Part shown: piece after piece, positions 106-26,089 of the stretch
How positions within the stretch are numbered: position 1 is the stretch's first letter
Layout of the letters: each line of letters begins with the position of its first letter
Assembly (NCBI GenBank): GCA_022866005.1
Contig: JALHTV010000012.1
Location: forward strand, 1 to 32,902
DNA length: 32,902 bases
Direction of reading: 5' to 3'
Source: Phycisphaerae bacterium
Lineage (GTDB): Bacteria > Planctomycetota > Phycisphaerae > SM23-33
The notes under the pieces: model-generated
What the model was told of the DNA's origin: nothing
The model's database searches: none
The model's input: only the letters and a program-made list of their open reading frames with translations
Position numbers and translations under genes: made by a program

Positions 106-1056
106 ATGGCGGCCGGTCGCAATCCCTGCATGCCAGGCAATCGAGCAGACATGCCCTGGGCTCTGGAGCGAACAAGCTGGCGGGGGGTGCGCGTGGATCA
201 TCCCCGCGACTGGGAAATCGCCCTGGCCGCCGGGCCTGACGAGCCACCGCGGTGCACCTTCACCGACCGCCACTACCACCGCCTCGACGTCCGCTGGCAG
301 GAGACCGATCACCCGCCCAACCTCGAGCTGCTCCTGGAGAAGCACCGCCACAGCCCCAAGGGCGAGCTTCGCGACGTCTCGCGGCTGGGGGGCCTGCCCG
401 CGGGGTGGTGCGGGGTGCTGCGCAAAGGCGAGGGCGGCTGCGTGACCTACGCGGCCAAGGTGTTCCGCGACCGGAGGGTGCTCGTGGAGGCCACGCTGTT
501 TTGGCCCGGGCAGCGCGACACCGCCCTGGAAGCAGCCGTTCTGGAGTCGGTCGCCGTGGACGCCGCGGGGCCCGTCCGCCTGTGGCAGGCGATGGGCATG
601 AGCCTGGAGTTGGGCGAGCAGTTCAGGCTGCGCAGCAGCGACAGCCGCGTCGGCCGCGTGCAGTGGCAGTTCGCCACCACCGGCCGAGACGCCGCGACGC
701 TCACGGTCGAGCGCCTGGCCATGCCCGACTGCTGGCTCAAAGGGCCCCTGGAAGATTGGCTCTCCGAGCAGGTGCCCCCCCGCCACGTCGCGGTCACCAA
801 GACCGCCACGACGTTCAATGAGCATTCGGCGCACCACCAGGTCAGCCGCGGCAAGGGCAGCCTGGGTGCGACCCTTCGCCACCTTCGGCCCATGAGGCTG
901 GACGTGGCTTGGCTGTGCGAGGCGGAGAATCGGCTGTACCATCTCGCCCTCGCGCGGCTGTCGCGAGATGCGGGGCTGGAGCTGCCGGCGAGTCTGGCGG
1001 TGCGGTGCTGCCAGCCGGTGCCGCAGGCGGCCAGCGGACCTGAGAGGCGACCATGA
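106..1056 (+). CDS. hypothetical protein, first gene of the ABC/PqqD operon. Start uncertain: GTG 34 and ATG 106, 130 or 151 are all in frame
   Basis: ORF 34..1056 in the track. Third codon positions are G/C-rich. Its TGA overlaps the ATG of the next ORF (ATGA at 1053-1056). TATAAA lies at 85-90. I recognise no motif. Confidence 0.5.
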   Translation: MAAGRNPCMPGNRADMPWALERTSWRGVRVDHPRDWEIALAAGPDEPPRCTFTDRHYHRLDVRWQETDHPPNLELLLEKHRHSPKGELRDVSRLGGLPAGWCGVLRKGEGGCVTYAAKVFRDRRVLVEATLFWPGQRDTALEAAVLESVAVDAAGPVRLWQAMGMSLELGEQFRLRSSDSRVGRVQWQFATTGRDAATLTVERLAMPDCWLKGPLEDWLSEQVPPRHVAVTKTATTFNEHSAHHQVSRGKGSLGATLRHLRPMRLDVAWLCEAENRLYHLALARLSRDAGLELPASLAVRCCQPVPQAASGPERRP

Positions 1057-1457
1057 GCCCACGGCGCGGCCAAAAACAGTTGCCAAATGGCCTCTCGGCG
1101 GCTAACTTCCTTCACGCCGTGCCACACGCGAACCGGGCCATGGAGACGCACCATCGGTCTGACGGAAGCACGTTGGCGTCCGTGCCGATTCCCAGGCCGA
1201 AGTACCTTGTGCCCCCTCTGAGCTGGATTCTCCCGTTCTCCCCCTATCGGCGGGTGGAACTGGAACCGGTGGGGTCCGGTGTGCTGAAGATGTGCGACGG
1301 CCGGCGAACGGTCGAGGCGATCATCGAGGCATTCGCCGCCGGCCACAAGCTGTCGTTCCGCGAGGCGCAGTTGGCGGTCACCCAGTTCCTCAGTCAACTC
1401 ATGCAACGCGGTCTGGTGGTGATCGTCGGCCAGGACGGAGACACACGCGGATCATGA
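1053..1457 (+). CDS. PqqD-family (RiPP recognition element-like) small protein
   Basis: The C-terminal ~75 aa read VELEPVGSGVLKMCDGRRTVEAIIEAFAAGHKLSFREAQLAVTQFLSQLMQRGLVVI. This follows the PqqD/RRE pattern of strands followed by a helical bundle (dG.rtv.eI ... a..dv..Fl..L...glv). ATGA overlaps occur at both ends (1053 and 1454). Confidence 0.6.
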   Translation: MSPRRGQKQLPNGLSAANFLHAVPHANRAMETHHRSDGSTLASVPIPRPKYLVPPLSWILPFSPYRRVELEPVGSGVLKMCDGRRTVEAIIEAFAAGHKLSFREAQLAVTQFLSQLMQRGLVVIVGQDGDTRGS

Positions 1458-3034
1458 AGACGATCCAGGTCAGAGATCAGGTGCACCTGCCGCTGCGGCG
1501 GTGCCTGGAGCTGGTGCTCAGCGGCGTCAGGTACCGCCTGTTCCGGGCGGCGATCACGGTGACGATCATCGCCCTGGCCGGGGCGTTCCTGATGGTCATG
1601 CTCACCGAAGGCTTCTCCGCGCGGCAAGTCGCCGCAGATATCGCTGAGCGCACCGCCCCCCGCGAGACCTTCCGGTCCTGGGTGTCCAGAATCTCCATCC
1701 CCATGACCGAGCTGCAACTGGCTGAGGAGCTGGCCGCGGCCAGCCCCGGTCAGCCTCGCTGGGGCGAGTTGGTCGCCTGGGGGGAATTGAGCGACGAGGA
1801 CCTCCGCCGCCTGGTCGAGCTGGCCAGGCGCCACCGCAAGTATCTGGCCTACTTCCGCAGCCTGGCTGAGGGACAACGCCGGATCCTGGTGGGGCCGGTC
1901 GGAGACGACGGGCTCTTTGCCGAGCTGACCCACCCCACCAGGTTCGCCACCTTCCAGGAGGGACTGAAGACCTCTTCCCGCCAGCTTCCCACGACCGTGG
2001 AGGAGTTCCAGAAGTTCCTGACCGACGGGCAGGACACCTCCCCGGTCCGTCAGAAGATCCTCTCGGCCAACGCCGCTGCCGTAGCCCAGGTCCAACGCAC
2101 CTTCCTAACTGGCGGGCAGACGCCGCAGTCGCTGCTGACCAAGGCCGACGAGGCCCTGGTCCGGGCCTTGGCGGCCTTGGGCTTCCGCATGCCCGCAGAC
2201 ATCCTGCCGCAGCTGCGGGAGCAAGCGGCCCTGAGCGTGGACAGCAAGACCCTGCTCGCGCTGTACGTCGGGCCGGCGGCCATTCAGACCGGCGTGGTTG
2301 ACGTGGGCACGGAGGGCGAGGGGGAAAACGAGGAGCCCGAGGGAGCCAAAGCCCCCGCACGGCCCCACAAGGGCGTGGTGCTGGTGAAGACCCTCCTGGC
2401 CGCTCGACTGGGTGTGAACATCACCAAGGTCAACGACCAGATGCTCTACGAGCACCTGTCCTCGGGGTCGGGCGCCCAGTGGTTCGTGGGGGTGACGGCC
2501 TGCGACACCAAGGGGGGTCTGGACGCCCGGCGCGTCCGACAGGTGGCCGAGTTCATGACCGACCAGAGCCGCCTGGAGACCATCAAGAACAACGTCGGGC
2601 AGGTCGCGGCCTCGGAGGGGTTCCTCGGGTTCAACAACCGGACACTCTCCCTGATCGTGGTCAGCTTCATGGTCTGCATTGTGGGCATCGCCAACGCGAT
2701 GCTGATGAGCGTCACCGAGCGGTTCCGCGAGATCGCCACGATGAAGTGCCTGGGGGCCACCGACGGGTTCATCATGATCAACTTCATCATGGAATCGATC
2801 ATGCTGGGCATCGCCGGCGGGGCGATCGGCATGGTCCTAGGGTTTATCCTGGGCCAGCTGCGGGCCTGGGGCAGCTACGGTCTGATGGCCTTGACGAGTC
2901 TGCCGGTCCTGGCCGTGCTGGCGGCAGCGGCGGTGGCGCTGGTGGTCAGCATCATCATCTCGGCCCTGGCGGCCGTGTATCCGGCCTGGGTGGCGGCCCG
3001 GCTGGCGCCGATGGAAGCCATGCGCATCGAATAG
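1454..3034 (+). CDS. MacB/FtsX-type ABC transporter permease: N-terminal TM, ~400-aa extracytoplasmic domain, C-terminal FtsX 3-TM bundle
   Basis: The ATG at 1454 overlaps the upstream stop. The N-terminal TM is AAITVTIIALAGAFLMVMLTEG. The C-terminal segment LSLIVVSFMVCIVGIANAMLMSVTERFREIATMKCLGATDGFIMINFIMESIMLGIAGGAIGMVLG...YPAWVAARLAPMEAMR is a typical FtsX domain. Confidence 0.8.
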   Translation: MKTIQVRDQVHLPLRRCLELVLSGVRYRLFRAAITVTIIALAGAFLMVMLTEGFSARQVAADIAERTAPRETFRSWVSRISIPMTELQLAEELAAASPGQPRWGELVAWGELSDEDLRRLVELARRHRKYLAYFRSLAEGQRRILVGPVGDDGLFAELTHPTRFATFQEGLKTSSRQLPTTVEEFQKFLTDGQDTSPVRQKILSANAAAVAQVQRTFLTGGQTPQSLLTKADEALVRALAALGFRMPADILPQLREQAALSVDSKTLLALYVGPAAIQTGVVDVGTEGEGENEEPEGAKAPARPHKGVVLVKTLLAARLGVNITKVNDQMLYEHLSSGSGAQWFVGVTACDTKGGLDARRVRQVAEFMTDQSRLETIKNNVGQVAASEGFLGFNNRTLSLIVVSFMVCIVGIANAMLMSVTERFREIATMKCLGATDGFIMINFIMESIMLGIAGGAIGMVLGFILGQLRAWGSYGLMALTSLPVLAVLAAAAVALVVSIIISALAAVYPAWVAARLAPMEAMRIE

Positions 3035-3048
3035 CGAGCGATTCGATC

Positions 3049-3843
3049 ATGAACGACACGTCGACCGCCCGAACGCCGCCTGCCTCGGCCCCGGCGCCCA
3101 CCGAGGAGCAGCCGGTCATCATCCGCACGCGCCAGCTCAAGAAGTCCTACCGCATGGGCCTGGTGACCACCGAGGCGCTGCGCGGGGTGGACGTGGAGAT
3201 CCACCGCGGCGAGTTCCTCTGCGTCATGGGGCCCAGCGGCTCGGGCAAGAGCACCTTCTTCAACATGGTCGGGGGACTGGACAGCCCCACCAGCGGGCGG
3301 GTGTTCATCGATGAGGTGGACGTGGCCCAGCTCAACGCCGTCGAGCTGGCCTTCCTCCGCTGCCGCAAAATCGGCTACATCTTCCAGACCTACAATCTGG
3401 TGCAATATATGACGTGCCTGGAGAACGTCACCGTGCCGATGGCGTTCGCCGGGGTCGACGCCGACGAGGCCCGCGAGCGCGGCATGGCGCTGCTGGACCT
3501 CGTGGGGCTCAAGGACCGCTGGTTCCACAAGCCCATCGAGATGTCCGGCGGCCAGCAGCAGCGCACGGCCATCGCCCGCGCCATGGCCAACCACCCGGCG
3601 ATCCTGCTGTGCGACGAACCCACCGGCAACCTGGACCTCAAGACCGGCGCCGAAATCCATCGGATCCTCCAACAGCTCAACGAGGAGCGCGGCGTGACGA
3701 TCATCTGCGCCACGCACGACCACCGGCTGATCGACATGGCCGATCGGATCATGTGGTTTCGCGACGGCCAGGTGGAACGCCTGGCCGACCGGCGCGACGT
3801 GACGGTCGAGACCGGCGCGATCGGAGGCGAAGAAAATGGCTAA
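3049..3843 (+). CDS. ABC transporter ATP-binding protein (MacB/LolD-like NBD)
   Basis: Walker A GPSGSGKST, signature MSGGQQQR, Walker B ILLCDEPT and H-loop ATHD are present. Starts at ATG 3049, 14 nt after the permease stop. Confidence 0.9.
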   Translation: MNDTSTARTPPASAPAPTEEQPVIIRTRQLKKSYRMGLVTTEALRGVDVEIHRGEFLCVMGPSGSGKSTFFNMVGGLDSPTSGRVFIDEVDVAQLNAVELAFLRCRKIGYIFQTYNLVQYMTCLENVTVPMAFAGVDADEARERGMALLDLVGLKDRWFHKPIEMSGGQQQRTAIARAMANHPAILLCDEPTGNLDLKTGAEIHRILQQLNEERGVTIICATHDHRLIDMADRIMWFRDGQVERLADRRDVTVETGAIGGEENG

Positions 3844-6800
3844 GCGAGGCATGATCTCCGTCATCGTGGCCCTCCTGGTGGGCGCCGCCGTGGGCGGATC
3901 GCTAAGGGCGGCAGTGTCCCTGGAGACCTTCGAGAGCGACTTGCGAGCCCTGGCGGCCCGGCCCCACCGCCTGGCCGGGTTCGAGGACGGAAGCCTGGCT
4001 GCGGGCCGGTACGTCCTGGAGCGGCTCAAGGAGATCGGCTTCCAGGACGAGGACATCTTCCCGCAGGCCTTCGCGGTGGTCCAACCGGTCACCACCCAGT
4101 GCGAGCTGGTGGCCGACGGTGTGAGTTACCCTATCCTGCCGATGCGACCGAACGTCGTCCAGGCCTCGATCACCCCCCAGGAGGGTCTCACCGGTGAGGT
4201 GGTCTACGCCGGCAGCGGCACGGCGGCCGAGTACGGCAACAACTACCCCCAGGGCAAGATCATCGCGATGGACCTGGACAGCGCCGCCAACTGGATGAAC
4301 GCCTTCGCCTTCGGGGCCAAGGCCGTGCTGTTCCTGGGACCGCCGGAAGGCTCGACGCCCGACATCCAGGCGTATCATCACGCCAACACACCGGCCAACC
4401 TGCCGCGGTTCTACGTACCGCACGAGCTGGCGGTGAAGCTGGACCTGACCAACCCCCACCGTCCGGGCAAGGTGACGATCCGGGCCGCCTGCCAGTGGAA
4501 GGAGCTCCGCGGCCGAAACGTCATTGCCGTGCTGCGGGGCACCAATCCGGTCTTCGAGAAGGGCGGCCTCCGCCAGATCGTCCTGCTGGCCGCCCCGCTG
4601 GACAGCTACTCGGAAGTCCCCGAGCTGTCTCCCGGCGCCCGCGACGCCGGCAACTGCGCCGCCCTGCTCCAGATCGCCGAATACCTGCGCACCCACCGGC
4701 CGCGACGCGACGTGGTCCTGTGCTTCTTCGACGGCCAGACACTCAACCACGCCGGCGCGCGGGCCTTCTACGGCGCCCTGTACCGGCGCATCAAGAACAC
4801 CAAGCTCGCCGACGCGACCCTGGATGACCGCCTCAAGGAACAAGACCAGGAGACCACCTACTTCCAGCAGATCCTGGACGTCCTTAACCAGCGGGACCTG
4901 ATGGGGTCGGCCGCTCGACAGATGAAGTACTTCGACGACGCTCTGCGCCTGCTGCGGGACGAGGCTCGCAATACCGGCGACGGCATCGAGGAGGTGCTCA
5001 GCCCCAAGCGCGTGGCGTTCGAGGAGATCCAGAAAGACCTGGCGCGACTTCGCAAGGCCTCCCAGGCCGCTGCGACCGCGGAGCAGAAGGCCCCGCTGGA
5101 CGCGGAGATCCAGGCCCGCCAGGGGACGGCGGACGCCTTGGACGCGGAGATCAAGGTCCTGGCGGAGCAGAGCCTGCAGTGGAACAGCGTCCAGCGCATG
5201 CTGCGCTACAAGACGCCCGATCCCCAGAACCAGGAGACGTTCGATCGGTTGCTGGAGATCTTCCGCAGCAAATACCGCCGGCGCCTGGAGGAGATTGCCC
5301 AGGCCTCCCAGGAAACCCGCCTGGGCAAGCGTCTGTACCAGGCCATCGGGCCGCAGAGCAGCACCATCGTCCTCCATGTCAGCATCGATCTGGGCGATGC
5401 CAGACGGCGATGGACGTTCATCCACGGGGACGATTCGGCCCCGGTGGACAACGACCGCACCGGCATGTACACCTATCACTTCAAGACCCTCAATGCGGTA
5501 GCCCAGGCGTTGGGCGACCGGGTGAAGGGGTTTGACGATCGCGCCGTCTCCCAGTTGTACGACAACCGCCTGTTCGCCCCCGGCCGGTTCGCCGACAGCG
5601 GCCCGATCGCGCGGCTGTTCTCGGTGTGGAACTTGTCGGTGATGACCGTGATGGATCGCCGGCCGCGCCAAGGCCTGCCCACCGACACGCTGGCGGCGCT
5701 GGACTCCAAAACCCTGTACGACCAGGCCGGCGAGGTGGCGGTGTTCCTCAAGCACCTGGCAGACGACGAGGGGATCAACCTGCTGCCCAAGACACGGGCC
5801 GAGGTGCGGTTCGGTGAGGCCTCCTGGACCGGCATCAAGAGCGTCGGCCCGAGGGTGAACCTCAGCGGCATCGGGGGGGCGCTGCGGACGAGGTCCATCG
5901 GCGACGCGTTCGTCGCCATCTTCCCCAACAACGGCTGGGGGGAAATGCCCATGGAGAAGGCCGTCCCGGGCTTTGTGGACTGGTTTCTCTGCAAGACCAA
6001 CGTCCACGGCATCTTTGAGACCGGGCCGTATTCCACGAACTACTACAAGAAGCCCTACTTCGTCGCGGTGATGTTCGACCGCGGCACCGGGGACGAAGAG
6101 GACCTGGCCACAGGGAGGGGACTCATCGAGGCCATCACCAACACCAGCAGGATCGGCGGCAGCACCGGCTCCGCCGCGGACTTCACCAAGGCCTCCCCGG
6201 TGATCTTCAAGACCCACTACAAGACCCTCGTCAACTACGGCGCCGACCGCGGGGCCGTCACCTCGACCGCCATGCGGGCCATGTCTACCGCCGCCTTCCC
6301 GAAAGATCGCAGCCTGCTGTGCGAGTGGGGCAACATCAGCAGCGTCTTCGCACCCGCCGACGCCAAGGGCATCAAGCTGTTCAACAAGATGACCCTGGTG
6401 GTCTTGAACAATGCCAAGTCCAAGGACCGCTATCAGGGGCAAGGACTCAGCCTGGACGACCCGTTCGACCACCCAGCGTCCCCGCCCATGACCGCCCACG
6501 ACTTGCGGACGCTGAATGAGTACCGCCTTCAGTTGCTGCGGGAGGTCCGCATCCACCAGGAATCGCTGGAAACCCTGACCGGCCGGGCCAAGGACCTGGA
6601 GACCGACGCCCAAGCCGGTCGCGGCAAGGCGCCGGCAGGCTGGTACTTCGGCACGCTGGAGACGTCGGCGGCCTTCTCGCGCCTGGTGTACATCCCGCTG
6701 ATCGACGTGATGAACGACCTGGTCACGGCCGTCGTGCTGCTGCTGTTGCTGGCCATGCCGTTTGCCTACGCCCTGGAGCGCCTCGTGATCGGCTCGCCGC

Positions 6801-8902
6801 ACATCTACCGACAGATCGGCTGGTTTGCCCTGTTCTTCCTGGCGACCTTCGCGCTGCTGTTCAGCGTGAACCCGGCGTTCAAGATCGCTTCCACGCCCAT
6901 CATCATCTTCCTGGCCTTCGCGATCATCCTGTTGAGCTCGCTGGTAATCTTCATCATGGTCCGCAAGCTCCAGACGGAGGTTCGCAAGATGCAGGGGCTG
7001 TCGGCCACGGTGCACAGCGCGGACGTCTCGCGGTTGAGCACGATGATGGCGGCGGTGAACATGGGGATTTCGACGATGCGCCGTCGGCCGCTGCGGACGC
7101 TCCTGACGGCCATCACCGTCGTGCTGCTGACCTTCACGATCCTGACGTTTGCCTCCTTCGGGAGCAGCTGGGGCATCTGGCCGAGCTATCAGGGCGCGAT
7201 GACCAGCTTGCGGCCTCACATCGTCGTGCGGCATCCGCTGTGGAGCCCGATTACCCACGGTGTCTTCGAGACGCTCGGCGGCTACCTGGGCAAGGACGCC
7301 GAAATCGTGCCGCGGATCTGGGTGTCCGGGACCGCCCAGCAGACCAAGGACGCCTACACCGCCGGTGCGAGCCTGGAGAAGATGCTGTCGGACGAGGGCG
7401 CCCGGCGGATCGTGCCCATGGCCGCGGCGATTGGGCTGGACCCGGCCGACCTGGCCGACGCGCAGGGCCGACCCCGCCAGGAGGAGCTGGCCGAGCTCTT
7501 TGCCCCCTCGGACCGGGTGGACCTCCTGGCCGCCGACGGCATCTTCCTCACCGAGGCCATCGCCAACGAACTGAAGCTCACCCCCGCTGACATCGGCCAG
7601 GCCAAGCTGCTGCTGGCCGGGATGACCTTCACCTACGCCGGCACGGTCAGCGATCGGCTGGCCACGGCCACGATGCTCGACGGCAGCAGCGTGCTGCCGG
7701 TGGACTACGAGGCCTCGGCGGGGGAATCGGAAGAGAACATCAACGAGCAGGCCACCACGACGCTCTCGCTGGTGGAGATGCCCGACGTCCAGAGCGCCCA
7801 GTTCGTCACGTTCAACGTGGACAAGGTGGTGATCATCCCCGCGGCCAAGGCCCGGCGCCTGGACGGCACAATTCGCTCCGTCTCGATCTACCCCGCCGAC
7901 GACAAGGTCGCCACGATCCGCGACATGGCCGATACCATCACGAGGATCGCGCAGGTGCCCACGCACGTGGGCGACCAGGGGGGCGTGCACCGGTTGGTCT
8001 TCACCTCGCTGGTCAGGGCGTCCGGCTGGCGGGACCTGCTGGTGCCGGTGGTGCTGGGCGGGCTGATCATCTTTGCCACGATGCTCGGCAGCGTCAGCGA
8101 CCGCGAGCGGGAGATCTACACCTTCAGCTCGCTGGGCCTGGCCCCGCCCCACGTGGCGAGCCTGTTCTTCGCTGAGGCGTCCATGTACGCGGTCCTGGGC
8201 GGGATGGGCGGGTACCTGCTGGGCCAGGTGGTGGCGCGGTTGCTGGCCTGGGTGAGCGGGACCTTCGGCTGGTCCGTGCCCACCATGAACTACAGCTCCA
8301 CCAACGCCCTGGTGACCATCGTGATCGTCATGGGCACGGTGCTGGTCTCGACGATCTACCCGGCGATCAAGGCCTCGCGGTCGGCCAACCCGGGCATCCA
8401 GAGAACCTGGCAGATCCCCAAGCCCAAGGGCAACCTCTATGACCTGATCTTCCCGTTTACCGTGTCTACCTACGACATCACGGGCGTGGTGAGCTTTCTG
8501 AAGGAGCACTTCGAGAACTACACGGACACGTCGCTGGGCGTGTTCGCGACGACCTCCTGCTCCATCTTCCGCCAGAAGGGCAACGACATGCTGGGCTTCC
8601 AGGCGACGGTGGCGCTGGCCCCGTTCGACCTGGGCGTCAACCAGCGCTTCGCCCTGCTCAGTCAGCCCAGCGACATCGAGGGCATCGACGAGGTCCGCAT
8701 CCTCATCTACCGTCTCAGCGGGGCCCCGGGCGACTGGCAGCGCGGCAATCGCGTCTTCATCCACGACCTGCGCAAGCAACTGCTCATCTGGCGGTCGCTG
8801 CCGGCGGAGGTAATGGACAAGTACCGCGCCAAGACGCTTGGGGGGTGGGACCAGCTCCCCGTGGAACAGGTCGACGGTGAGAGCATCGGAGGGACGGCGT
8901 GA
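3836..8902 (+). CDS. 1688-aa membrane fusion protein: signal/TM, M28/PA peptidase-like ectodomain with degenerate metal ligands, coiled-coil insert, extra TM helices, MacB/FtsX permease module, ~190-aa C-terminal domain
   Basis: ATG 3836 overlaps the upstream stop by 8 nt. M28-like motifs: NVIAVLRG, LLAAPLDS, PGARDAGNCAALLQIAEYL, VSIDLGD. The coiled coil is rich in K/E/Q/A. The MacB TM1 is RRRPLRTLLTAITVVLLTFTILTFASF. The FtsX block is LGGLIIFATMLGSVSDREREIYTFSSLGLAPPHVASLFFAEASMYAVLGGMGGYLLGQ...YPAIKASRSANP. Confidence 0.85.
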   Translation: MAKRGMISVIVALLVGAAVGGSLRAAVSLETFESDLRALAARPHRLAGFEDGSLAAGRYVLERLKEIGFQDEDIFPQAFAVVQPVTTQCELVADGVSYPILPMRPNVVQASITPQEGLTGEVVYAGSGTAAEYGNNYPQGKIIAMDLDSAANWMNAFAFGAKAVLFLGPPEGSTPDIQAYHHANTPANLPRFYVPHELAVKLDLTNPHRPGKVTIRAACQWKELRGRNVIAVLRGTNPVFEKGGLRQIVLLAAPLDSYSEVPELSPGARDAGNCAALLQIAEYLRTHRPRRDVVLCFFDGQTLNHAGARAFYGALYRRIKNTKLADATLDDRLKEQDQETTYFQQILDVLNQRDLMGSAARQMKYFDDALRLLRDEARNTGDGIEEVLSPKRVAFEEIQKDLARLRKASQAAATAEQKAPLDAEIQARQGTADALDAEIKVLAEQSLQWNSVQRMLRYKTPDPQNQETFDRLLEIFRSKYRRRLEEIAQASQETRLGKRLYQAIGPQSSTIVLHVSIDLGDARRRWTFIHGDDSAPVDNDRTGMYTYHFKTLNAVAQALGDRVKGFDDRAVSQLYDNRLFAPGRFADSGPIARLFSVWNLSVMTVMDRRPRQGLPTDTLAALDSKTLYDQAGEVAVFLKHLADDEGINLLPKTRAEVRFGEASWTGIKSVGPRVNLSGIGGALRTRSIGDAFVAIFPNNGWGEMPMEKAVPGFVDWFLCKTNVHGIFETGPYSTNYYKKPYFVAVMFDRGTGDEEDLATGRGLIEAITNTSRIGGSTGSAADFTKASPVIFKTHYKTLVNYGADRGAVTSTAMRAMSTAAFPKDRSLLCEWGNISSVFAPADAKGIKLFNKMTLVVLNNAKSKDRYQGQGLSLDDPFDHPASPPMTAHDLRTLNEYRLQLLREVRIHQESLETLTGRAKDLETDAQAGRGKAPAGWYFGTLETSAAFSRLVYIPLIDVMNDLVTAVVLLLLLAMPFAYALERLVIGSPHIYRQIGWFALFFLATFALLFSVNPAFKIASTPIIIFLAFAIILLSSLVIFIMVRKLQTEVRKMQGLSATVHSADVSRLSTMMAAVNMGISTMRRRPLRTLLTAITVVLLTFTILTFASFGSSWGIWPSYQGAMTSLRPHIVVRHPLWSPITHGVFETLGGYLGKDAEIVPRIWVSGTAQQTKDAYTAGASLEKMLSDEGARRIVPMAAAIGLDPADLADAQGRPRQEELAELFAPSDRVDLLAADGIFLTEAIANELKLTPADIGQAKLLLAGMTFTYAGTVSDRLATATMLDGSSVLPVDYEASAGESEENINEQATTTLSLVEMPDVQSAQFVTFNVDKVVIIPAAKARRLDGTIRSVSIYPADDKVATIRDMADTITRIAQVPTHVGDQGGVHRLVFTSLVRASGWRDLLVPVVLGGLIIFATMLGSVSDREREIYTFSSLGLAPPHVASLFFAEASMYAVLGGMGGYLLGQVVARLLAWVSGTFGWSVPTMNYSSTNALVTIVIVMGTVLVSTIYPAIKASRSANPGIQRTWQIPKPKGNLYDLIFPFTVSTYDITGVVSFLKEHFENYTDTSLGVFATTSCSIFRQKGNDMLGFQATVALAPFDLGVNQRFALLSQPSDIEGIDEVRILIYRLSGAPGDWQRGNRVFIHDLRKQLLIWRSLPAEVMDKYRAKTLGGWDQLPVEQVDGESIGGTA

Positions 8903-10905
8903 GCACCATCCGCTACGACAAGGAACTGGAAGAGTTCCGAAACCTGATGAAGGTGCCCTCGACGTTCGAGGAGGGCTTCAGCTTCGCGGCGCTCATTGGG
9001 GCGCTGTTCGTGGCGCTGATGATGGTCCCCGGGGCGATGTACATGACGCTGCTCGCCGGCCAGGGGGTCGGGCCCGCGGCCCAGTGGGTCACCGTCATCC
9101 TGTTCATCGAAGTCGCCCGCCGGGCGCACAAGCACCTCAAGAGGGCGGAACTGTTCATCCTGTTCTACATGGCGGGGGCAGCCATGGTGCAACCGTTCCA
9201 GGGGCTGATCTGGCACCAGTTCCTCGTCCAAAGCCAAGCCGCGATCGGCATGGGCGTGGCCCAGAACATCCCCCACTGGTACGCCCCTCGCGATCCGGAG
9301 GTGCTGGCCACACGGAACTTCTTCGACCCGGCTTGGTACCCCGCCGTCGGGATGGTCATCTTCAGCACCTTCATGGGCCGGATCAACGGCACCATCCTGA
9401 CGTACGGGCTGTTCCGGATCGCCAGCGACATCGAGAAGCTGCCCTTTCCCATGGCCCCGATCGGCGCCTCGGGCATCATGGCCCTGGCGGAGCAGCAGGA
9501 GGAAGAAGGCACGTGCGCCACCGAGAAGCCCGAGAACTGGCGGTGGAGGATCTTCAGCATCGGCGGCATCATGGGGTTGAGCTTTGGGGCGATCTACCTG
9601 GCGCTGCCGGCGCTGTCCTCGGCCATCCTCAATCAGCCGATCACCATCCTGCCCATTCCGTTCGTGGAACTGACAGGCAAGACCGCCGACATCCTCCCGG
9701 CCGTCGCCACCGGCATCAACCTGAACATGGGGCTGCTGATCACCGGAATGGCCATGCCCTTCTTTGCGATCCTGGGCTCGTTCATCGGGCTGGTGCTGAC
9801 GGTCATCATCAACCCGATGCTGTATAAGCATCAAATCCTCACCAGTTGGTCGCCCAGCGACGACAACACACCTAAGACGTTGTTCTTGAACCAGTTGGAC
9901 TTCTACTTCAGCTTCACTATCGGGCTGTCTCTGGCCATCGCGGCGGCGGGCATCTGGCAGGTGGTGCGCAGCATTCAGGCCAAGGCCAAGCTCCGCAAGC
10001 AGCAGCGGGAGCTTCGCGTCGAGATGGAGGCCGAGGCCATCACACCCAAGGGGCGCGGCGACCTCCCGGCGACGGCGGTCATCGGCACGTACCTCCTCAC
10101 CTCGGTGTCCTACATCCTGGTCAGCGGCTACCTCATCGACTGGCACCCGGGCGTCATGAAGGTGCTGCTGTTCTTCGCCTTCATCTACACCCCGGTGATC
10201 AGCTACGTCACCGCGCGCCTCGAGGGCCTGGCCGGGCAGGTGGTGGCCATCCCGATGGTCCGCGAGGCCGCGTTCATCCTGTCGGGGTACACCGGCGGGG
10301 TGGCCATCTGGTTCCTGCCGACCCCCATTCACGATTACGGCAAAGGCACCGTCCTCTACCGCCAGGCCGAGCTGACCGGCACGCGGTTCTGGTCGCTCTG
10401 GAAGGCCGAGCTGATCCTGGTGCCCATCGTGATGCTGGCCTCGATCTTCTTTGCCCAGTTCATCTGGTCGCTGGGACCCATCCCCGGGCCGGAGTTCCCC
10501 TACACCGAAGTCATGTGGGAGCAGGAGGCCGCCAACAAGTGCATCATGTACAGCGCCACGCTGGGGCGCTTCAGCACGTTCGAGCAGGCCTTCGATTGGA
10601 GATACCTGCTGATGGGCGGCGGGTTCGGCGTGGCGATGTTCACGATCATGATGCCGCTGCACCTGCCGATCCTGATGATCTACGGCATCGTCCGCGGCCT
10701 GGGGCAAACCCTGCCGCACCAGATCTTGCCTGAGATCGTCGGGGCGGTGCTGGGGCGCTACTACTTCCAGAGGAAGCTGGGCAAGAAATGGCGCCCGTAC
10801 ATCCTGGTGGTGGCGGCGGGATTCCACTGCGGCATGGGCTTGATCACCGTGCTCAGCGTGGGCCTGAACTTCCTGGCGAAGTCCGTCATCAGGATTCCGT
10901 TCTGA
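8899..10905 (+). CDS. 668-aa polytopic integral membrane protein, family unknown (weak OPT oligopeptide-transporter-like flavour, low confidence)
   Basis: The GTG start overlaps the upstream TGA (GTGA at 8899-8902). There are many hydrophobic ~20-aa segments throughout. The N-terminal pattern FSFAALIGALFVALMMVPGAMYMTLLAGQGVGPAAQWVTVILFIEVARR resembles the first helices of OPT-family proteins as I remember them. Confidence 0.7.
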   Translation: MSTIRYDKELEEFRNLMKVPSTFEEGFSFAALIGALFVALMMVPGAMYMTLLAGQGVGPAAQWVTVILFIEVARRAHKHLKRAELFILFYMAGAAMVQPFQGLIWHQFLVQSQAAIGMGVAQNIPHWYAPRDPEVLATRNFFDPAWYPAVGMVIFSTFMGRINGTILTYGLFRIASDIEKLPFPMAPIGASGIMALAEQQEEEGTCATEKPENWRWRIFSIGGIMGLSFGAIYLALPALSSAILNQPITILPIPFVELTGKTADILPAVATGINLNMGLLITGMAMPFFAILGSFIGLVLTVIINPMLYKHQILTSWSPSDDNTPKTLFLNQLDFYFSFTIGLSLAIAAAGIWQVVRSIQAKAKLRKQQRELRVEMEAEAITPKGRGDLPATAVIGTYLLTSVSYILVSGYLIDWHPGVMKVLLFFAFIYTPVISYVTARLEGLAGQVVAIPMVREAAFILSGYTGGVAIWFLPTPIHDYGKGTVLYRQAELTGTRFWSLWKAELILVPIVMLASIFFAQFIWSLGPIPGPEFPYTEVMWEQEAANKCIMYSATLGRFSTFEQAFDWRYLLMGGGFGVAMFTIMMPLHLPILMIYGIVRGLGQTLPHQILPEIVGAVLGRYYFQRKLGKKWRPYILVVAAGFHCGMGLITVLSVGLNFLAKSVIRIPF

Positions 10906-10925: not shown

Positions 10926-11654
10926 ATGGCCACTCAAGATACGATCATCCGCTGCCGGGGGCTGACCAAGACCTACCGCATGGGCGGCCAGGAGGTCTAC
11001 GCCCTGCGCCACATGGACCTGGACGTCTTCCGCGGGGAGTACCTCTCGGTGATGGGTCCCAGCGGCAGCGGCAAGAGCACGCTGTTCAACATGATCGGGG
11101 CGCTGGACAAGCCCACCGGCGGCACGGTGACCATCGCCGGGGTGGACCTGACCGCCCAGACCAGCCTGCAACTGGCCTACTTCCGCAACCAGCACATCGG
11201 GTACATCTTCCAGGCCTTCAACCTCATCCCCTCGCAGACGGCCCTGCGGAACGTCATGCTGCCGCTGCTGTTCTCGGGCATGGACAACACCGCCGCCGAA
11301 AGGCGCGCCACGGCAGTCCTGGAGGAAGTCGGCCTGGGCCAACGCCTGCACCACCGGCCGGACGAGCTCTCCGGCGGCCAGCAGCAGCGCGTCGCCATCG
11401 CCCGCGCGCTGGCGATGGAGCCGACGATCATGCTGGCGGACGAACCCACGGGCAACCTCGACTTGCACACCGGGGAGGAGATCATCAACATCCTCCGCGG
11501 CCTGTGCGACCACCACGGCGTGACCGTCATCACGGCCACCCACGACCACAAGATGCTGGACAAGTCCGACCGCATCCTCTGGATCCGCGACGGGGCCAAG
11601 GAACGCCTCGAGAAGCGCAGCAACCTGGACATCCGCGTGGGAAAGGTCGAATAG
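10926..11654 (+). CDS. ABC transporter ATP-binding protein (second MacB/LolD-like NBD, paralog of 3049..3843)
   Basis: Walker A GPSGSGKST, signature LSGGQQQR, Walker B IMLADEPT and H-loop ATHD are present. ATG 10926 lies 20 nt after the upstream stop. Confidence 0.9.
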   Translation: MATQDTIIRCRGLTKTYRMGGQEVYALRHMDLDVFRGEYLSVMGPSGSGKSTLFNMIGALDKPTGGTVTIAGVDLTAQTSLQLAYFRNQHIGYIFQAFNLIPSQTALRNVMLPLLFSGMDNTAAERRATAVLEEVGLGQRLHHRPDELSGGQQQRVAIARALAMEPTIMLADEPTGNLDLHTGEEIINILRGLCDHHGVTVITATHDHKMLDKSDRILWIRDGAKERLEKRSNLDIRVGKVE

Positions 11655-11755: not shown

Positions 11756-12618
11756 CTACTCTTCCTCGATGTCTTTGCGGCTCATCAGGAAGGTCACGCG
11801 CTCCAGGATGTCTTTGTGGAGGGTCTTGCGGAGGATTCTCCGGGCGGCGGCCATGTTGGTCCGGCGGGTCAGGTGCACCAGGATGATCTTGGCGTTGCTC
11901 ATGCCCTCCAGCATCTCCGGCAGGTCGGAGGCATGCACGTGCTTGCCCACGCGGGCGCGGTGCAGATGCTCCTCGTCGAAGAACGTGCACTCGATCAGCA
12001 GCGCCTGGGCGTTGGCCACGTGAGGCAGGTGGGAGTAGCTGGCCTTGCCGGTATCCCCCAGGTAGGCCACCAGCGGCACCTCGATGCGGTTGGTGATCTC
12101 CACACCGGACTTCTTCAGCTCCACGATCTGCGGGCCCGACAGCTCCAGGTACTCGCTCTTGAGCTTCGCCCGGACGTCGATGATGGAGTAGCCCAGCGAG
12201 CCGGTGATGTGCCGCGTGGCAAAGGCCCGGACGATCAGACCGCGGCGGACCTCGTAGTTGTCCCCGTCGGCCACGCCCACCAGCTTGTACGGCGGCACGT
12301 GCCCTTCCACCCGCCCCCAGGCGCTCATCAGGGCCTCAATCGGCCCGACCAGACCCGCCGGCACCACGGCCACCCCGTGGCGATGCCCTGGAAGTCCCGC
12401 TGGGCAAAGTAGTACGGCAGTCCGGCGACGTGGTCCATGTGGCCGTGGGTCAGCAGCAGGTGGTTGACGACCAACGCCTCGCGCGGGCAGCGGCCGATGT
12501 CAAAAACGCAGTCCAGCTCCGGCGCGACAATGACCGCCTCCTCCCCGGCCACGCTGTAGCCAGCCAGGGTGAACTCGCCCACGCGAACCTCGCTAAGCTC
12601 GTAGGGACGAATCTTCAT
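11756..12618 (-). pseudogene. MBL-fold metallo-hydrolase (RNase Z / RNase BN-like) interrupted by a -1 nt frameshift
   Basis: ORF 12328..12618 carries the HxHxDH motif (LTHGHMDHVAG). ORF 11756..12373 carries the rest of the fold (...ATRH..., GDTG, ...VHLTRR). The two frames meet at a C4 run at 12373-12376. Confidence 0.7.
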
Positions 12619-17208: not shown

Positions 17209-18402
17209 CTACGCACCCTCGCCGCCCACACCGCGCTGCCGTCGGCGGAAGACCCAGAGGTGGGAGAGGGTAAAGTTGAACAGCAGCCCCGCCAGGATGC
17301 CGACGATGGCCGCGGCCAGCAAGTGGGCCTTGAAGAACGCCGCCTTGCTGGGCAGGAAACAACTGATAAACCAGTTGATCCCGGCTCCCACGCTACACGC
17401 GCTGACGAACCTCCAATACTGCGCCCAGACCCTTCCACCGCGCATGTGGCTGTACGTCACGCGCCGATTGAAAAAGAAATTCCACGTCATGGCCACCAAG
17501 ATGGCCAGGGCGCGGGCAGCGTATATCATCAGTTTGTGGGTAGCTTCCGTCGCCGACATCGCTCGGGCCAGAGGATGGGCCCCCAGGTCTAGCAGCAGTG
17601 CGTAGGCGGACAGGTCCACGACTGCCCCCGTCCCGCCGACCAGGCAGAACTGAAACAGCCTGGAGAACCAGCCATACTTGTAGTCCGCCAGGCGCTTGAT
17701 GTGCTTGAGGTAGTTGACCTGCTCCTTGAGGCTGAGCTTGCTCTGGCCGAACTTGCGGTTGGCGAAGTGGATGGGCACCTCGCGGATGTCCTTGCAGCCG
17801 CACTTGACGATCAGCTCCAGGGCGATCTTGTAGCCGATGGGGTTAAGGGCCGCCGCGCGATGGAAGACCGCCCGGGGCAACGCGAAAAACCCTGCCATCG
17901 GGTCGCGGGCCTTGGTGAACGGCCAGGCCAGTAGCGTGGCCACCTTGCTATTGACCCAGCGGAACAGTCCCCAGCCCTCATCCGTGCTGGCCCCCGGGAC
18001 ATAGCGGCTGCCGATGGCAAAGTCCGCGCCCCCGGCCAGGCAGTCCAGCAGCGCGGGGATGGCCTCGGGCGGGTGACTAAGGTCGGCGTCCATGCAGACC
18101 AGGGTGTCGCCGATAGCCCGGCCGAAGCCATCGATGACGGCCGAGCTGAGGCCGCGCACACCCACGCGAGTAATCAGGCGAACCGGCAGCCCCTCGGCGG
18201 CCAGCTCGGCGATCACCTGGTCGCTGCCGTCACGGCTGTCGTCGTCGACGATGATCACCTCCCAGGATCGCCCCAGCGCGGGCATCACCTGGCGGATGCG
18301 GTCGACCAGTGGGCGGAGGTTCTCGGCCTCCCGGTACGTCGGCACGATGATCGACACCGCGTCGCCGCGCCCGGGGGACCTGGAGGGAAAGGAGGATGAC
18401 AT
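17209..18402 (-). CDS. GT2 polyprenol-phosphate glycosyltransferase (DPM1/GtrB/CsbB-like) fused to a C-terminal GtrA-like 4-TM domain
   Basis: GT2 motifs: IIVPTYREAENL, VIIVDDDSRDGS, CMDADLSHPP. The C-terminal segments FCLVGGTGAVVDLSAYALL ... NFFFNRRVTY ... FNFTLSHLWVF are GtrA-like. Confidence 0.85.
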   Translation of the reverse strand: MSSSFPSRSPGRGDAVSIIVPTYREAENLRPLVDRIRQVMPALGRSWEVIIVDDDSRDGSDQVIAELAAEGLPVRLITRVGVRGLSSAVIDGFGRAIGDTLVCMDADLSHPPEAIPALLDCLAGGADFAIGSRYVPGASTDEGWGLFRWVNSKVATLLAWPFTKARDPMAGFFALPRAVFHRAAALNPIGYKIALELIVKCGCKDIREVPIHFANRKFGQSKLSLKEQVNYLKHIKRLADYKYGWFSRLFQFCLVGGTGAVVDLSAYALLLDLGAHPLARAMSATEATHKLMIYAARALAILVAMTWNFFFNRRVTYSHMRGGRVWAQYWRFVSACSVGAGINWFISCFLPSKAAFFKAHLLAAAIVGILAGLLFNFTLSHLWVFRRRQRGVGGEGA

Positions 18403-18425
18403 GAGTGAGCTTCCTGTCCTTGTGC

Positions 18426-20966: not shown

Positions 20967-21081
20967 CTCACCGCTGATGCTACCGGTCACCAAGGCCTCC
21001 TCAGCACGACGCTGCAAGTACCTATTCTATCTAGACGTCGGCCAAACGCTGGAGGTTTTCGCAGTTTCCTCCGCACCCCTT

Positions 21082-21762
21082 TCACCGGGGCAGCGTGTCG
21101 ATCACAGCGGCCGCTATCGCCAGGTCGGCGGCGGTGGTGATCTTGATGTTCCGCACGTCGCCGGGCACCACCGAGACCTCCCGGCCGGTCGCCTCCACCA
21201 GACGCGCGTCGTCGGTGGCCTCGGCGCCTGTGGCGTAGGCCGCCAGCAGCCAGTCGCGCCGAAAGACCTGGGGCGTCTGGGCCTCCCAGGCCTCCGCCCG
21301 CGGCAGGGTTCCCTGGACAACCCCGGCGGGCGAGACGCGCTTCAGCGTCCCGTGCACCGGGCAAGCCAGGATGGCTGCGCCGGCCCGCTGGGCCTGGGCA
21401 AAGACCGCGTCCACCCACAGCGGGCTGACGCACGGCCGGACTGCGTCATGCACACAGACCAGCTCGGCCTGATCGCTGAGGTGCGCCAGGGCGTTGCGAA
21501 CGGACTCACTCCGCGTGGCCCCGCCGGCCACCACGGTCACACCCATCGAGTCCAACTGCGAACCGAAGCGGCGCCTGACCTCGTGCAGGTTACCCGGGGC
21601 CACCACCAGCAGCACCTGGCAGACATCCCGTCGCGTGACAAAGACCTCCAGCGTGCGGATGAAGACCGGCCGGCCATTCAGCGGCTGGAAGATCTTGCCG
21701 CCCGCGGCGACGAACCGTTTCCCCGCCCCGGCGCCGGGCACGATCACCGATACTTTGGCCAT
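21082..21762 (-). CDS. ispD: 2-C-methyl-D-erythritol 4-phosphate cytidylyltransferase
   Basis: VIVPGAGAGKRF, VCVHDAVRP and EAQTPQ motifs. 226 aa. Confidence 0.9.
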   Translation of the reverse strand: MAKVSVIVPGAGAGKRFVAAGGKIFQPLNGRPVFIRTLEVFVTRRDVCQVLLVVAPGNLHEVRRRFGSQLDSMGVTVVAGGATRSESVRNALAHLSDQAELVCVHDAVRPCVSPLWVDAVFAQAQRAGAAILACPVHGTLKRVSPAGVVQGTLPRAEAWEAQTPQVFRRDWLLAAYATGAEATDDARLVEATGREVSVVPGDVRNIKITTAADLAIAAAVIDTLPR

Positions 21763-21872
21763 ACGCGATGTCTCGCAAGGTGGCGCAACGTCCATCGTAC
21801 CGCCCCGGGCGCAGGGTGGCAACACGACTGCACGCTCGTGACCACCCCGGCACAGGTCGGTCCACGAGAAAG

Positions 21873-21892
21873 CCCCCGCCGTCAGGCGGGGG
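21873..21892 (-). terminator. hairpin CCCCCGCC-tgac-GGCGGGGG followed by CTTTCT on the minus strand
   Basis: An 8-bp perfect GC stem ~80 nt downstream of the YfhO-like stop. The trailing T-rich stretch is only modest. Confidence 0.45.
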
Positions 21893-21920
21893 ATGGTGCG
21901 CCACGCAATGGGACTATTAT

Positions 21921-21960
21921 CCCCGTGCCTGCCTGCCGGCAGGCAGGCTGACGCACGGGG
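21921..21960 (-). terminator. long bulged GC hairpin (8 + 9 bp stems, 6-nt bulge) 11 nt after the YfhO-like stop
   Basis: CCCCGTGC (21921-28) pairs with GCACGGGG (21953-60). CTGCCTGCC (21929-37) pairs with GGCAGGCAG (21938-46). No U-tract, so it may be a REP-like or stabiliser element rather than a terminator. Confidence 0.35.
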
Positions 21961-21971
21961 CTTCTCACCGC

Positions 21972-25881: not shown

Positions 25882-26089
25882 AACATTCTGACTTCGGATC
25901 GCACGTCGGTCAGGCTAGCAGGTGAGGCCACGCCGGCTCGGCACAGTGAGGGCAACAGAGTACCCCACTGCATTGGCTGTGTGCTTGCCTGTTGTGCACG
26001 TCGTTATGGGAGTGAGTGGACGGCCCGTCCGCGGCGAGGTCTGGAGAACACGAGTCCTAGGTCCCTCCTTAGACGTTGGAGATGCACAT

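Follow-up and report, generated by a model that had tools for sequence, protein, structure and literature searches.

MacB, LolCDE, FtsEX and YbbAP belong to a small and well-studied set of ATP-binding cassette (ABC) systems that convert cytoplasmic ATP into mechanical work in the periplasm and whose partners are separate proteins. A different arrangement is found in a Phycisphaerae bacterium, in the DNA studied here (contig JALHTV010000012.1 of assembly GCA_022866005.1, positions 1-32,902; this whole stretch of 32,902 nucleotides is called the window, and all coordinates refer to it). An open reading frame (ORF) at 3836..8902 on the + strand, stop codon included, starts with ATG and encodes a protein of 1688 amino acids (aa), hereafter the giant, in which an ectodomain with the fold of a PA-domain M28 aminopeptidase, its two-zinc centre lost, precedes a permease module of the FtsX type. 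It occupies the fifth place in a row of seven genes that are translationally coupled, stop codons overlapping start codons. We propose that in Planctomycetes, Verrucomicrobia and related bacteria (the PVC group) the giant is probably the receptor subunit of an envelope machine that is powered by ATP and belongs to the type VII ABC class (MacB/LolCDE/FtsEX).

The type VII fold and its topology features have been defined previously (PMC5985334), and the membrane module of the giant fits this definition. As in MacB, LolCDE/LolF, FtsEX, HrtBA and YbbAP-TesA, a four-helix FtsX module carries a large periplasmic domain between its first two transmembrane (TM) helices, and a coupling loop between TM2 and TM3 is found together with ATPases of the LolD/MacB type. 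In contrast to these systems, three extra helices and an ectodomain of ~940 aa stand before the module and a cytoplasmic domain of 177 aa stands after it, and the operon combines two permeases, two different ATPases and an OPT-like protein. For the ectodomain, the best sequence and fold matches are PA-domain M28 aminopeptidases (2EK8 from Aneurinibacillus AM-1, 6HC6 or BSAP from Bacillus subtilis, and 8ACG or PaAP from Pseudomonas aeruginosa), which have the same fold order, with the PA domain inserted in the M28 domain. Whereas these enzymes are secreted, ~400-500 aa long and bind two zinc ions, the giant has lost the two His and the Glu-Glu of the site, is tethered to a permease and has its fold split by a helical arm of 188 aa. 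In the absence of a metal site it resembles nicastrin and transferrin receptor 1, whose M28/PA ectodomains serve as membrane-anchored receptor or gatekeeper; these proteins, however, are eukaryotic and single-pass, whereas the giant is fused to an ABC permease. Taken at the level of the fold, the giant is a type VII permease carrying an M28 domain without the defining catalytic features, and it lies outside the nicastrin and transferrin receptor families. Full-text literature searching yielded no description of an M28-FtsX fusion or of the seven-gene operon, in keeping with an earlier note on this DNA, whose author knew of no described case of a binding-only peptidase fold fused to an ABC permease.

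The gene itself is well delimited. A GGAGG Shine-Dalgarno sequence lies 9 nt 5' of the ATG, which overlaps the stop codon of the preceding ATPase gene, ATP1. The call for the same gene in the protein collection (P0001) has 1535 aa, is 153 residues shorter at the N-terminus and so lacks the signal peptide together with a piece of the PA domain; since homologues align from residue 1 of the 1688-aa ORF, the longer start is the right one. The whole architecture recurs in more than 119 database proteins of 1600-2100 aa (42-82% identity) as well as in 183 genomic loci, which rules out an assembly chimera of two genes, a risk that the earlier note had raised against its own description of a 1688-aa fusion at 3836-8902. 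The fusion is real: ORF, ATG, Shine-Dalgarno sequence and recurrent architecture agree, and the short forms met among the homologues are truncated gene calls. Database names for these homologues are generic only ('M28 family peptidase', 'FtsX-like permease family protein'). An antisense ORF of 1625 aa (3902..8779, -) was rejected as a gene, being a shadow ORF typical of DNA with 67% G+C.

The giant begins with a signal peptide or signal anchor (aa 1-23; 3836..3904, +), hydrophobic over aa 5-23 after K3/R4 and helical at 3-20 in the model. The PA domain and the first half of the M28 fold follow at aa 27-317 (3914..4786, +), delimited by the 2EK8 alignment, the Pfam M28 match and predicted local distance difference test (pLDDT) values above 90; the second half occupies aa 506-650 (5351..5785, +). 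Pfam M28 (PF04389) matches aa 228-313 with 32.5 bits against a gathering cut-off of 21.3, the match covering profile positions 1-78 of 193 only. The enzyme 2EK8 is aligned by phmmer to aa 45-311 and is recovered at E=4.5e-10 when the family profile is compared with the Protein Data Bank (PDB). The AlphaFold2 model of aa 1-960, based on 45 sequences, has a mean pLDDT of 89.6 and a predicted template modelling score of 0.87, and its Foldseek matches with probability 1.0 comprise 2EK8 (E=3e-16), BSAP, PaAP, transferrin receptor and GCPII (~7e-13). Residues ~30-650 adopt the fold of a PA-containing M28 aminopeptidase. The M28 fold order with a PA-like insert, proposed previously from the letters, is thereby borne out, and the accompanying caution that there might be no significant M28 match does not apply, Pfam, the profile comparison with the PDB and the fold search all being significant.

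The ligand columns of the M28 fold were scored in 119 homologues and then in 70 genomic copies from two deep clades. All the altered motifs listed in the earlier note (LLAAPLDS, PGARDAGNC, FFDGQT, VSIDLGD and QGLPTDT) are present in the giant, the first three of them within aa 27-317 (P254, D256, D270, Q301-T302) and the last two, SIDLGD and QGLPTDT, in the second half of the fold. Pro replaces the first His ligand in 100 of the 119 homologues (Pro254 of LLAAPLDS in the giant), and the bridging Asp of ligand 2 is kept in 80 of them (Asp270 of PGARDAGNC). The alignment with 2EK8 places the Glu-Glu pair on Gln301-Thr302 of FFDGQT; the loss had thus been recognised correctly, while its placing on Gly-Gln was one residue off. 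In the column of the general-base Glu, Gln is found in 95/119 homologues and Glu in 13/119 (Gln301 in the giant), and Ala, Thr or Ser occupies that of the ligand-3 Glu. Motif 4 reads S-x-N-L-G-D in the homologues, with Asn in 101 of 119, where the giant has Asp518 (VSIDLGD at 515); motif 5 reads Q-G-[QL]-P-x-D-T (QGLPTDT at 612 in the giant), the ligand-5 position being Gly, Gln, Leu or Thr across members instead of His. Ligands 4 and 5 were assigned by motif inspection and spacing only, a further attempt, in which the helical insert was deleted and a 12-sequence profile compared with the PDB, having given no residue-level alignment. The canonical spacing N-x-D-M would allow G520/D521, in place of D518, as the equivalent of ligand 4, and the spacing H-T-x-x-D would allow G613, in place of L614, for ligand 5; a His is recovered in neither register. 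Degeneration goes further in the distant clade (~27% identity in the N-terminal half), where ligand 2 is Gly, ligand 4 Leu and ligand 5 Thr. The first His survives in six members of this clade, and in a small subclade the Glu, Asp4 and a His close to position 5 are retained. A full H-D-E-D-H set, searched for also as intact ligands elsewhere in the sequence, occurs in none of the 70 genomic copies, and almost every one of the 119 homologues has lost the two His as well as the Glu-Glu, so that the catalytic degeneration first noticed in this single sequence holds for the family. Judged by its residues, the giant appears to lack both the complete set of five zinc ligands and the general-base Glu of an active M28 enzyme.

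On the other hand, a framework of residues is conserved in both clades (D256, D299, D521, D540 and G613/P615/D617, likewise R104, N106, R191 and W526). This indicates that the fold and some surface are under selection and the metal site is not, and framework conservation amid catalytic loss argues for a retained non-catalytic function. With the two-zinc centre lost, the ectodomain is most likely a binder and not a peptidase. The comparison with non-catalytic M28 relatives made in the earlier note is supported by both of the relatives considered here: the transferrin receptor is a strong fold match, and nicastrin aligns with parallel losses (RLDS / PGAES / FFQGET) at E=0.006. In sequence the relationship to nicastrin is borderline (E 0.006-0.04), the nicastrin family PF05450 scores 13.9 bits against a cut-off of 25, and no presenilin-like gene is present in the operon.

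The arm that splits the M28 fold covers aa 318-505 (4787..5350, +) and consists, in the AlphaFold2 model, of helices at 329-350, 366-411, 415-458 and 463-504 with pLDDT ~88-96. It is rich in A/L/R/Q/D/E/K, the residues AEKQRL making up 60% against 41% in the remaining domain, and poor in Pro+Gly (5% against 14%). What had been described as a K/E/Q/A-rich coiled-coil insert of ~200 aa is indeed a helical insert splitting the fold, its measured size being 188 aa. The arm is the least conserved and most length-variable part of the giant, with insertions up to ~340 aa in some homologues from Planctomycetaceae. Two further elements, absent from the earlier note, lie between the M28 fold and the membrane: a β-rich periplasmic domain of ~230 aa (aa 651-880; 5786..6475, +), with strands at 657-849 in the model and no Pfam match, and a three-helix periplasmic stalk (aa 881-961; 6476..6718, +) with helices at 882-903, 909-928 and 934-959. 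In a second model the last stalk helix runs on into the first extra membrane helix as a single helix from aa ~934 to ~985. The whole periplasmic portion before the membrane thus amounts to ~940 residues.

Hydropathy analysis reveals helices at 5-23, 962-980, 993-1011, 1022-1040, 1088-1106, 1402-1420 and 1493-1511 and a weaker one at ~1446-1475, that is, a topology of eight helices with both ends in the cytoplasm that obeys the positive-inside rule, the K/R-rich loops being cytoplasmic. Three extra helices, TMa-c (aa 962-1040; 6719..6955, +), are followed by a K/R-rich cytoplasmic linker (aa 1041-1087; 6956..7096, +) that contains a GISTMRRRP motif, has 9 K/R against 2 D/E and shows near-invariant columns just before TM1 of the next module. 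The FtsX/MacB-type module itself (aa 1088-1511; 7097..8368, +), supported by PF02687, Foldseek and hydropathy, has the type VII order: TM1 (1088-1106), a periplasmic domain of ~295 aa (1107-1401), TM2 (1402-1420), a coupling-helix loop (SDREREIYTFSSLGL), TM3 (~1446-1475) and TM4 (1493-1511). The coupling-loop motif is conserved among homologues. Pfam FtsX (PF02687) matches aa 1405-1515 with 37.3 bits against a cut-off of 25.5, and the profile comparison with the PDB reaches LolF, LolC and MacB at E 0.009-0.07; all NCBIfam type VII scores are far under the family cut-offs, the LolC/E and MacB equivalogs included. The model of aa 930-1688 has an overall pLDDT of 71, with ~90 in the periplasmic domain and ~67-89 in the tail. 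Foldseek finds HrtB (4e-5) and LolCDE (2e-3) with the C-terminal half, and the periplasmic domain, which is flanked by β-α-β units in the model and may include a porter-type subdomain, matches the MacB periplasmic region 5C59 weakly (E=4e-3, TMt 0.51). Extra membrane helices followed by a complete MacB-type module had been anticipated from the sequence, and this description stands on hydropathy, PF02687, the HrtB, LolCDE and MacB fold matches and the adjoining LolD/MacB-type ATPases; the parts exist as described, but the sizes given for the periplasmic domain (~350 aa) and for the tail (~190 aa) are replaced by ~295 and 177 aa.

The cytoplasmic tail (aa 1512-1688; 8369..8899, +) has an α/β fold of 177 aa and is the best-conserved soluble part of the giant (conservation 0.71-0.82); together with TMa-c and the linker (0.83-0.88) and the FtsX bundle it makes up the most conserved parts of the protein. 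Queried alone it has no Pfam or PADLOC match at E<=10 and no NCBIfam or PDB sequence match, in agreement with the earlier remark that it carries no recognised motif, and its fold resembles SRPBCC/START proteins and SciW only weakly (Foldseek E 0.02-0.06). Kinship with unk300, the first protein of the operon, or with the β-rich domain was rejected (hhalign probabilities 0.2-0.3%). The tail is a candidate regulatory or docking domain.

A relationship absent from the earlier note links the membrane part to a catalogued family. The PADLOC profile PDLC01991, 'CARF_m8--CARF_LolE_TM', aligns its positions 74-599 of 810 to aa 963-1563 of the giant at E=9.7e-43, and split queries show that TMa-c (profile positions 74-206) and the FtsX bundle carry the match, whereas the ectodomain and the tail match nothing. 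A second profile, PDLC01990 ('CARF_m8--CARF_Beta-galactosidase_LolE_TM'), matches the FtsX part; with 1,791 positions it is similar in total size to the giant and, by its name and the ~1,330 positions before the matched FtsX region, appears to carry a different large N-terminal domain. We take these profile names to derive from the CARF census of Makarova et al. 2020. Both families differ from the giant in that its tail matches neither the rest of these profiles nor any CARF family and its M28 ectodomain has no counterpart in them. Because the core is shared with the CARF-LolE_TM families, the seven-helix core is, as far as profile comparison can tell, a recurring module found with other terminal domains. 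The CARF in the name of PDLC01991 and the ~260 profile positions beyond its membrane core suggest that the C-terminal cytoplasmic position is a slot for a sensor-type domain. The tail as a CARF domain was nevertheless rejected, as neither a PADLOC or Pfam match of the tail alone nor a CARF fold match was found; on these comparisons the giant shares the core of CARF_m8-LolE_TM proteins and not, it seems, their link to CARF sensing or cyclic oligoadenylates.

The operon opens with unk300 (151..1056, +), a cytoplasmic protein of ~301 aa without Pfam, NCBIfam or PADLOC match, which is syntenic wherever loci reach that far; its homologues have ~300 aa and two of them (P0128, P0146) are fused to a PF05402 PqqD-like domain. 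The second gene (1053..1457, +), whose start overlaps the unk300 stop, encodes a 134-aa protein with such a domain, a peptide chaperone of the type of the recognition elements for ribosomally synthesised and post-translationally modified peptides (PF05402, E=2e-9, 38 bits against a cut-off of 23.4; NCBIfam PqqD-family matches are weak). It is followed by FtsXs (1454..3034, +), an ordinary type VII ABC permease of 526 aa with TM1, a periplasmic domain of ~340 aa and an FtsX bundle (PF02687, E=1.9e-14; PDB matches 5XU1 at 3.6e-14, MacB at 2e-9 and also LolF, LolC and FtsX), whose NCBIfam MacB, LolCE and FtsX scores lie far under the cut-offs. In a Planctomycetaceae metagenome-assembled genome (MAG) FtsXs has 896 aa (4511..7201 of locus L005) against ~490-530 aa elsewhere, so that its periplasmic domain is expandable too, in the same genomes as the longest giant arm. 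ATP1 (3049..3843, +) is a 264-aa ABC ATPase of the LolD/MacB/FtsE type (ABC_tran, E=3e-30; in NCBIfam LolD at 1.9e-65, then DarD, FtsE and MacB) with intact motifs GPSGSGKST (Walker A), MSGGQ, DEPTGNLD and ATHD. Downstream of the giant, and always 3' of it in the related loci, comes a polytopic OPT-like membrane protein of 668 aa (8899..10905, +), whose GTG start overlaps the giant stop; it matches PF03169 (E=1.2e-11, 44.5 bits against a cut-off of 25.8), its orthologues are named 'peptide transporter' or 'OPT/YSL family transporter' by NCBI, and it has no PDB sequence relative. The last gene, ATP2 (10926..11654, +), encodes a second LolD/MacB-type ABC ATPase of 242 aa (LolD, 1.6e-69) that is ~50% identical to ATP1 and forms a separate orthologous group. 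Both ATPases have canonical Walker A, Q-loop, signature, Walker B and H-loop motifs, and LolD, MacB, FtsE and the darobactin exporter ATPase are their top NCBIfam matches, all below the equivalog cut-offs. Two genes for ATPases of the cognate MacB/LolD/FtsE type are present in the operon, and their products are candidate motors of the permeases.

A survey of the fusion's distribution, suggested in the earlier note, was carried out; it shows the fusion to be widespread and embedded in this conserved operon, which the note had not described. A tblastn comparison of 85 related loci gave the identical seven-gene order wherever the contig reaches far enough, and the gene tables of five distant loci and of a 5.7-Mb Opitutales contig show the same order. 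Identity falls from ATP1 (69-91%) through ATP2 (57-89%), the OPT-like protein (52-83%) and the C-terminal half of the giant (44-83%) to FtsXs (27-73%), the N-terminal half of the giant (26-65%), the PqqD-like protein (29-74%) and unk300 (22-59%). A pattern scan with one genome per species confirmed 183 giant loci in species-representative genomes. The 80 loci that were listed, from which the taxonomic labels are taken, are all from MAGs, almost all of the PVC group, and are labelled Phycisphaerae, Planctomycetota, Kiritimatiellia, Victivallales/Lentisphaerae, Verrucomicrobiota/Opitutales and, in one case, Omnitrophota. An exhaustive search with aa 940-1688 yielded, at E<=1e-30, 1,167 clusters formed at 50% identity; the full-length proteins among them almost all have 1550-2100 aa and carry the module at the C-terminal end. 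Apparent ectodomain-less variants of 750-800 aa (P0212, P0235, P0161, P0247) were rejected as truncated gene calls, since they start inside the stalk without a signal peptide and would invert the FtsX topology. An apparent fusion of an ABC ATPase to the giant (P0070, 2120 aa), which would have pointed to a pairing of ATP1 with the giant, was dismissed as a probable indel artefact: on its long-read contig, L086, frameshifts also break up the genes for the OPT-like protein, ATP2 and an rRNA-adenine-dimethylase. A role as a defence system was likewise rejected: PADLOC matches only the generic ABC and LolE_TM parts, and the context is a stable chromosomal operon, unlike a defence island. No CRISPR/cas genes are conserved near the 85 related loci.

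The mechanism we propose takes its first steps from MacB, LolCDE and FtsEX. The coupling loop of the FtsX module would dock a LolD-like ATPase encoded in the operon, and cytoplasmic ATP binding and hydrolysis would move the membrane helices and the periplasmic domain as in those systems. The motion would then pass through the helical stalk into the fused pseudo-peptidase and its arm, where, the pseudo-peptidase being covalently attached, it would open, close or reposition the binding site. The conserved tail may sense or dock something in the cytoplasm, and the partners of the giant would be the second FtsX permease, the two ATPases, the OPT-like membrane protein and the cytoplasmic PqqD-like/unk300 pair. 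As to the cargo, a peptide or a protein terminus is our tentative guess; it is prompted by four components whose families handle peptides (the PqqD-like chaperone, the OPT-like protein, the aminopeptidase/PA fold and the type VII ABC class, several members of which export peptides), and the bacteriocin and darobactin exporters among the ATPase matches point in the same direction. A fuller picture, in which the operon forms a new PVC envelope machine whose nicastrin-like dead aminopeptidase, driven by ATP, trades a peptide or protein terminus with the OPT-like channel while a PqqD chaperone and a sensor-like tail act inside the cell, is rather doubtful; if true, it would mean that peptide traffic has its receptor, its motor and its conduit coupled in a manner without parallel in model bacteria.

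Several observations weigh against the proposed receptor role or against its cargo. When the giant is aligned by sequence with M28 enzymes of solved structure, the alignment does not extend beyond motif 3, whether or not the insert is deleted, and D270, D521, H514 and H305 are still fairly conserved, which leaves room for a non-canonical site. The membrane helices of the monomer model have low confidence (pLDDT 45-60), as expected for a monomer taken out of its complex. The partnerships among the operon products are predicted from the genes, and the peptide theme draws on family names. No precursor-peptide gene is present within the operon; OPT proteins are not known to use ABC ATPases, so that the proposal does not account for ATP2.

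Among the other explanations, the one that survives best has its model in FtsEX-EnvC, likewise composed of an ABC mechanotransducer, a long helical element and a dead metallopeptidase domain (PMC7668044) and described as mechanotransmission without transport (PMC7668044, PMC5985334). By this account the arm and the dead domain would correspond to the coiled coil and the degenerate LytM domain of EnvC; movement driven by ATP would expose the pseudo-peptidase, which would then activate or restrain a separate periplasmic hydrolase, for example a cell-wall enzyme, and nothing would be transported. The same logic of parts is present in the giant, and the variable arm length is what would be expected of a reach or lever element. 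EnvC, however, is a separate protein with an M23/LytM domain, whereas the dead domain of the giant is M28 and covalently fused; no hydrolase gene is conserved beside the operon, nor an amidase near the related loci; and the OPT-like protein, the PqqD-like protein and the second ATPase have no place in such a regulator. The likeness is therefore one of logic only, and we regard this explanation as unlikely.

An extractor comparable to LolCDE, HrtBA or YbbAP, in which an FtsX heterodimer pulls a lipoprotein or hydrophobic molecule from the inner membrane and the ectodomain serves as acceptor, seems quite improbable. The order FtsXs-ATP1-giant reproduces the permease-ATPase-permease order of lolC-lolD-lolE, the ATPases score best against LolD, HrtB and LolCDE are among the fold matches, and the tail has a weak resemblance to the lipid-binding SRPBCC/START fold; YbbAP-TesA, moreover, provides a type VII ABC system paired with a periplasmic partner of hydrolase fold (PMC12646458). 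Against this, the LolC/LolE equivalog TIGR02212, which has a cut-off of 362 bits, gives the giant a score of 14.9 and FtsXs one of 42.1, the operon encodes two different ATPases and not one, the SRPBCC resemblance is not significant and concerns a cytoplasmic tail, and the aminopeptidase fold is not a known lipid acceptor. That the ectodomain is still an enzyme, a membrane-anchored hydrolase coupled to a transporter through a remodelled non-canonical site (e.g. one metal held by D256/D270/D521/H514/H305), is very improbable indeed: D256 is conserved at 100%, D299, H514 and D521 at ~90% in both clades and H305 at 74-92%, and the HxD His of six distant members and the Glu, Asp4 and His of the small subclade might be counted in its favour, but the five ligands are complete in no member, Gly stands in place of the bridging Asp throughout the distant clade, and most members have Gln where the general-base Glu would be; the residues that are conserved, moreover, are the ones that maintain the fold in nicastrin and other M28 relatives.

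As a receptor, the giant would be a bacterial example of an M28 fold turned to non-catalytic use, a route taken independently by nicastrin and the transferrin receptor in eukaryotes, and the fusion of a periplasmic effector to a permease would add a novel design to the type VII ABC systems. Since stoichiometry and geometry are fixed in an effector-permease fusion, the path of force should be easier to study. The operon occurs across Planctomycetota, Verrucomicrobiota, Kiritimatiellia and Lentisphaerota, in addition to the one listed locus labelled Omnitrophota; these phyla have unusual envelopes and almost no genetics. Four of the operon's domains are without any family model: unk300, the β-rich domain, the tail and, if PADLOC is set aside, the three extra helices.

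Some variation within the family deserves mention. Two different giant/OPT-like/ATP2 blocks are found per MAG in two cases, Phycisphaerae SM23_33 (L010 and L036) and Phycisphaerae CSMAG_1584 (L013 and L025), and the near and distant giant clades both occur inside Planctomycetota, Kiritimatiellia and Victivallales, which suggests old paralogous systems, perhaps differing in their ligands. Three homologues (P0060, P0066, P0069) have an extra CHRD domain (PF07452) of ~155-185 aa right after the signal peptide, and another (P0007) is annotated with PF19962 in place of M28. The Omnitrophota locus (L051) may show that the system truly extends beyond the classical PVC phyla; a 3.4-kb contig labelled Blastochloridaceae (L083, from an alphaproteobacterial MAG) is probably mis-binned.

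The genes flanking the operon are not conserved. A convergent gene of metallo-β-lactamase fold (11756..12373, -; Lactamase_B_2, sub-threshold in the window) follows it in the window and in loci L001 and L002 only, and is not found in the Kiritimatiellia, Verrucomicrobia and Planctomycetaceae MAGs (L003, L004 and L005, respectively); in the Verrucomicrobia MAG a 524-aa membrane protein of DUF6785/PF20580 (14..1588 of L004) lies directly 5' of the operon. Farther along the window, outside the conserved operon, a cluster of envelope-glycosylation type at 17209..24380 (-) includes a fusion of a GT2 domain with a GtrA-like membrane domain (17209..18402, -), a PMT_2-like protein that carries a long TPR array (18426..21017, -) and, at 21972..24380 (-), a YfhO-like membrane protein. 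The remaining neighbours are ordinary ones, a class II (B12-dependent) ribonucleotide reductase with a TSCPD domain (25922..29122, +) and a calcineurin-like phosphoesterase fused to a CBM9-like domain (29771..31669, +).

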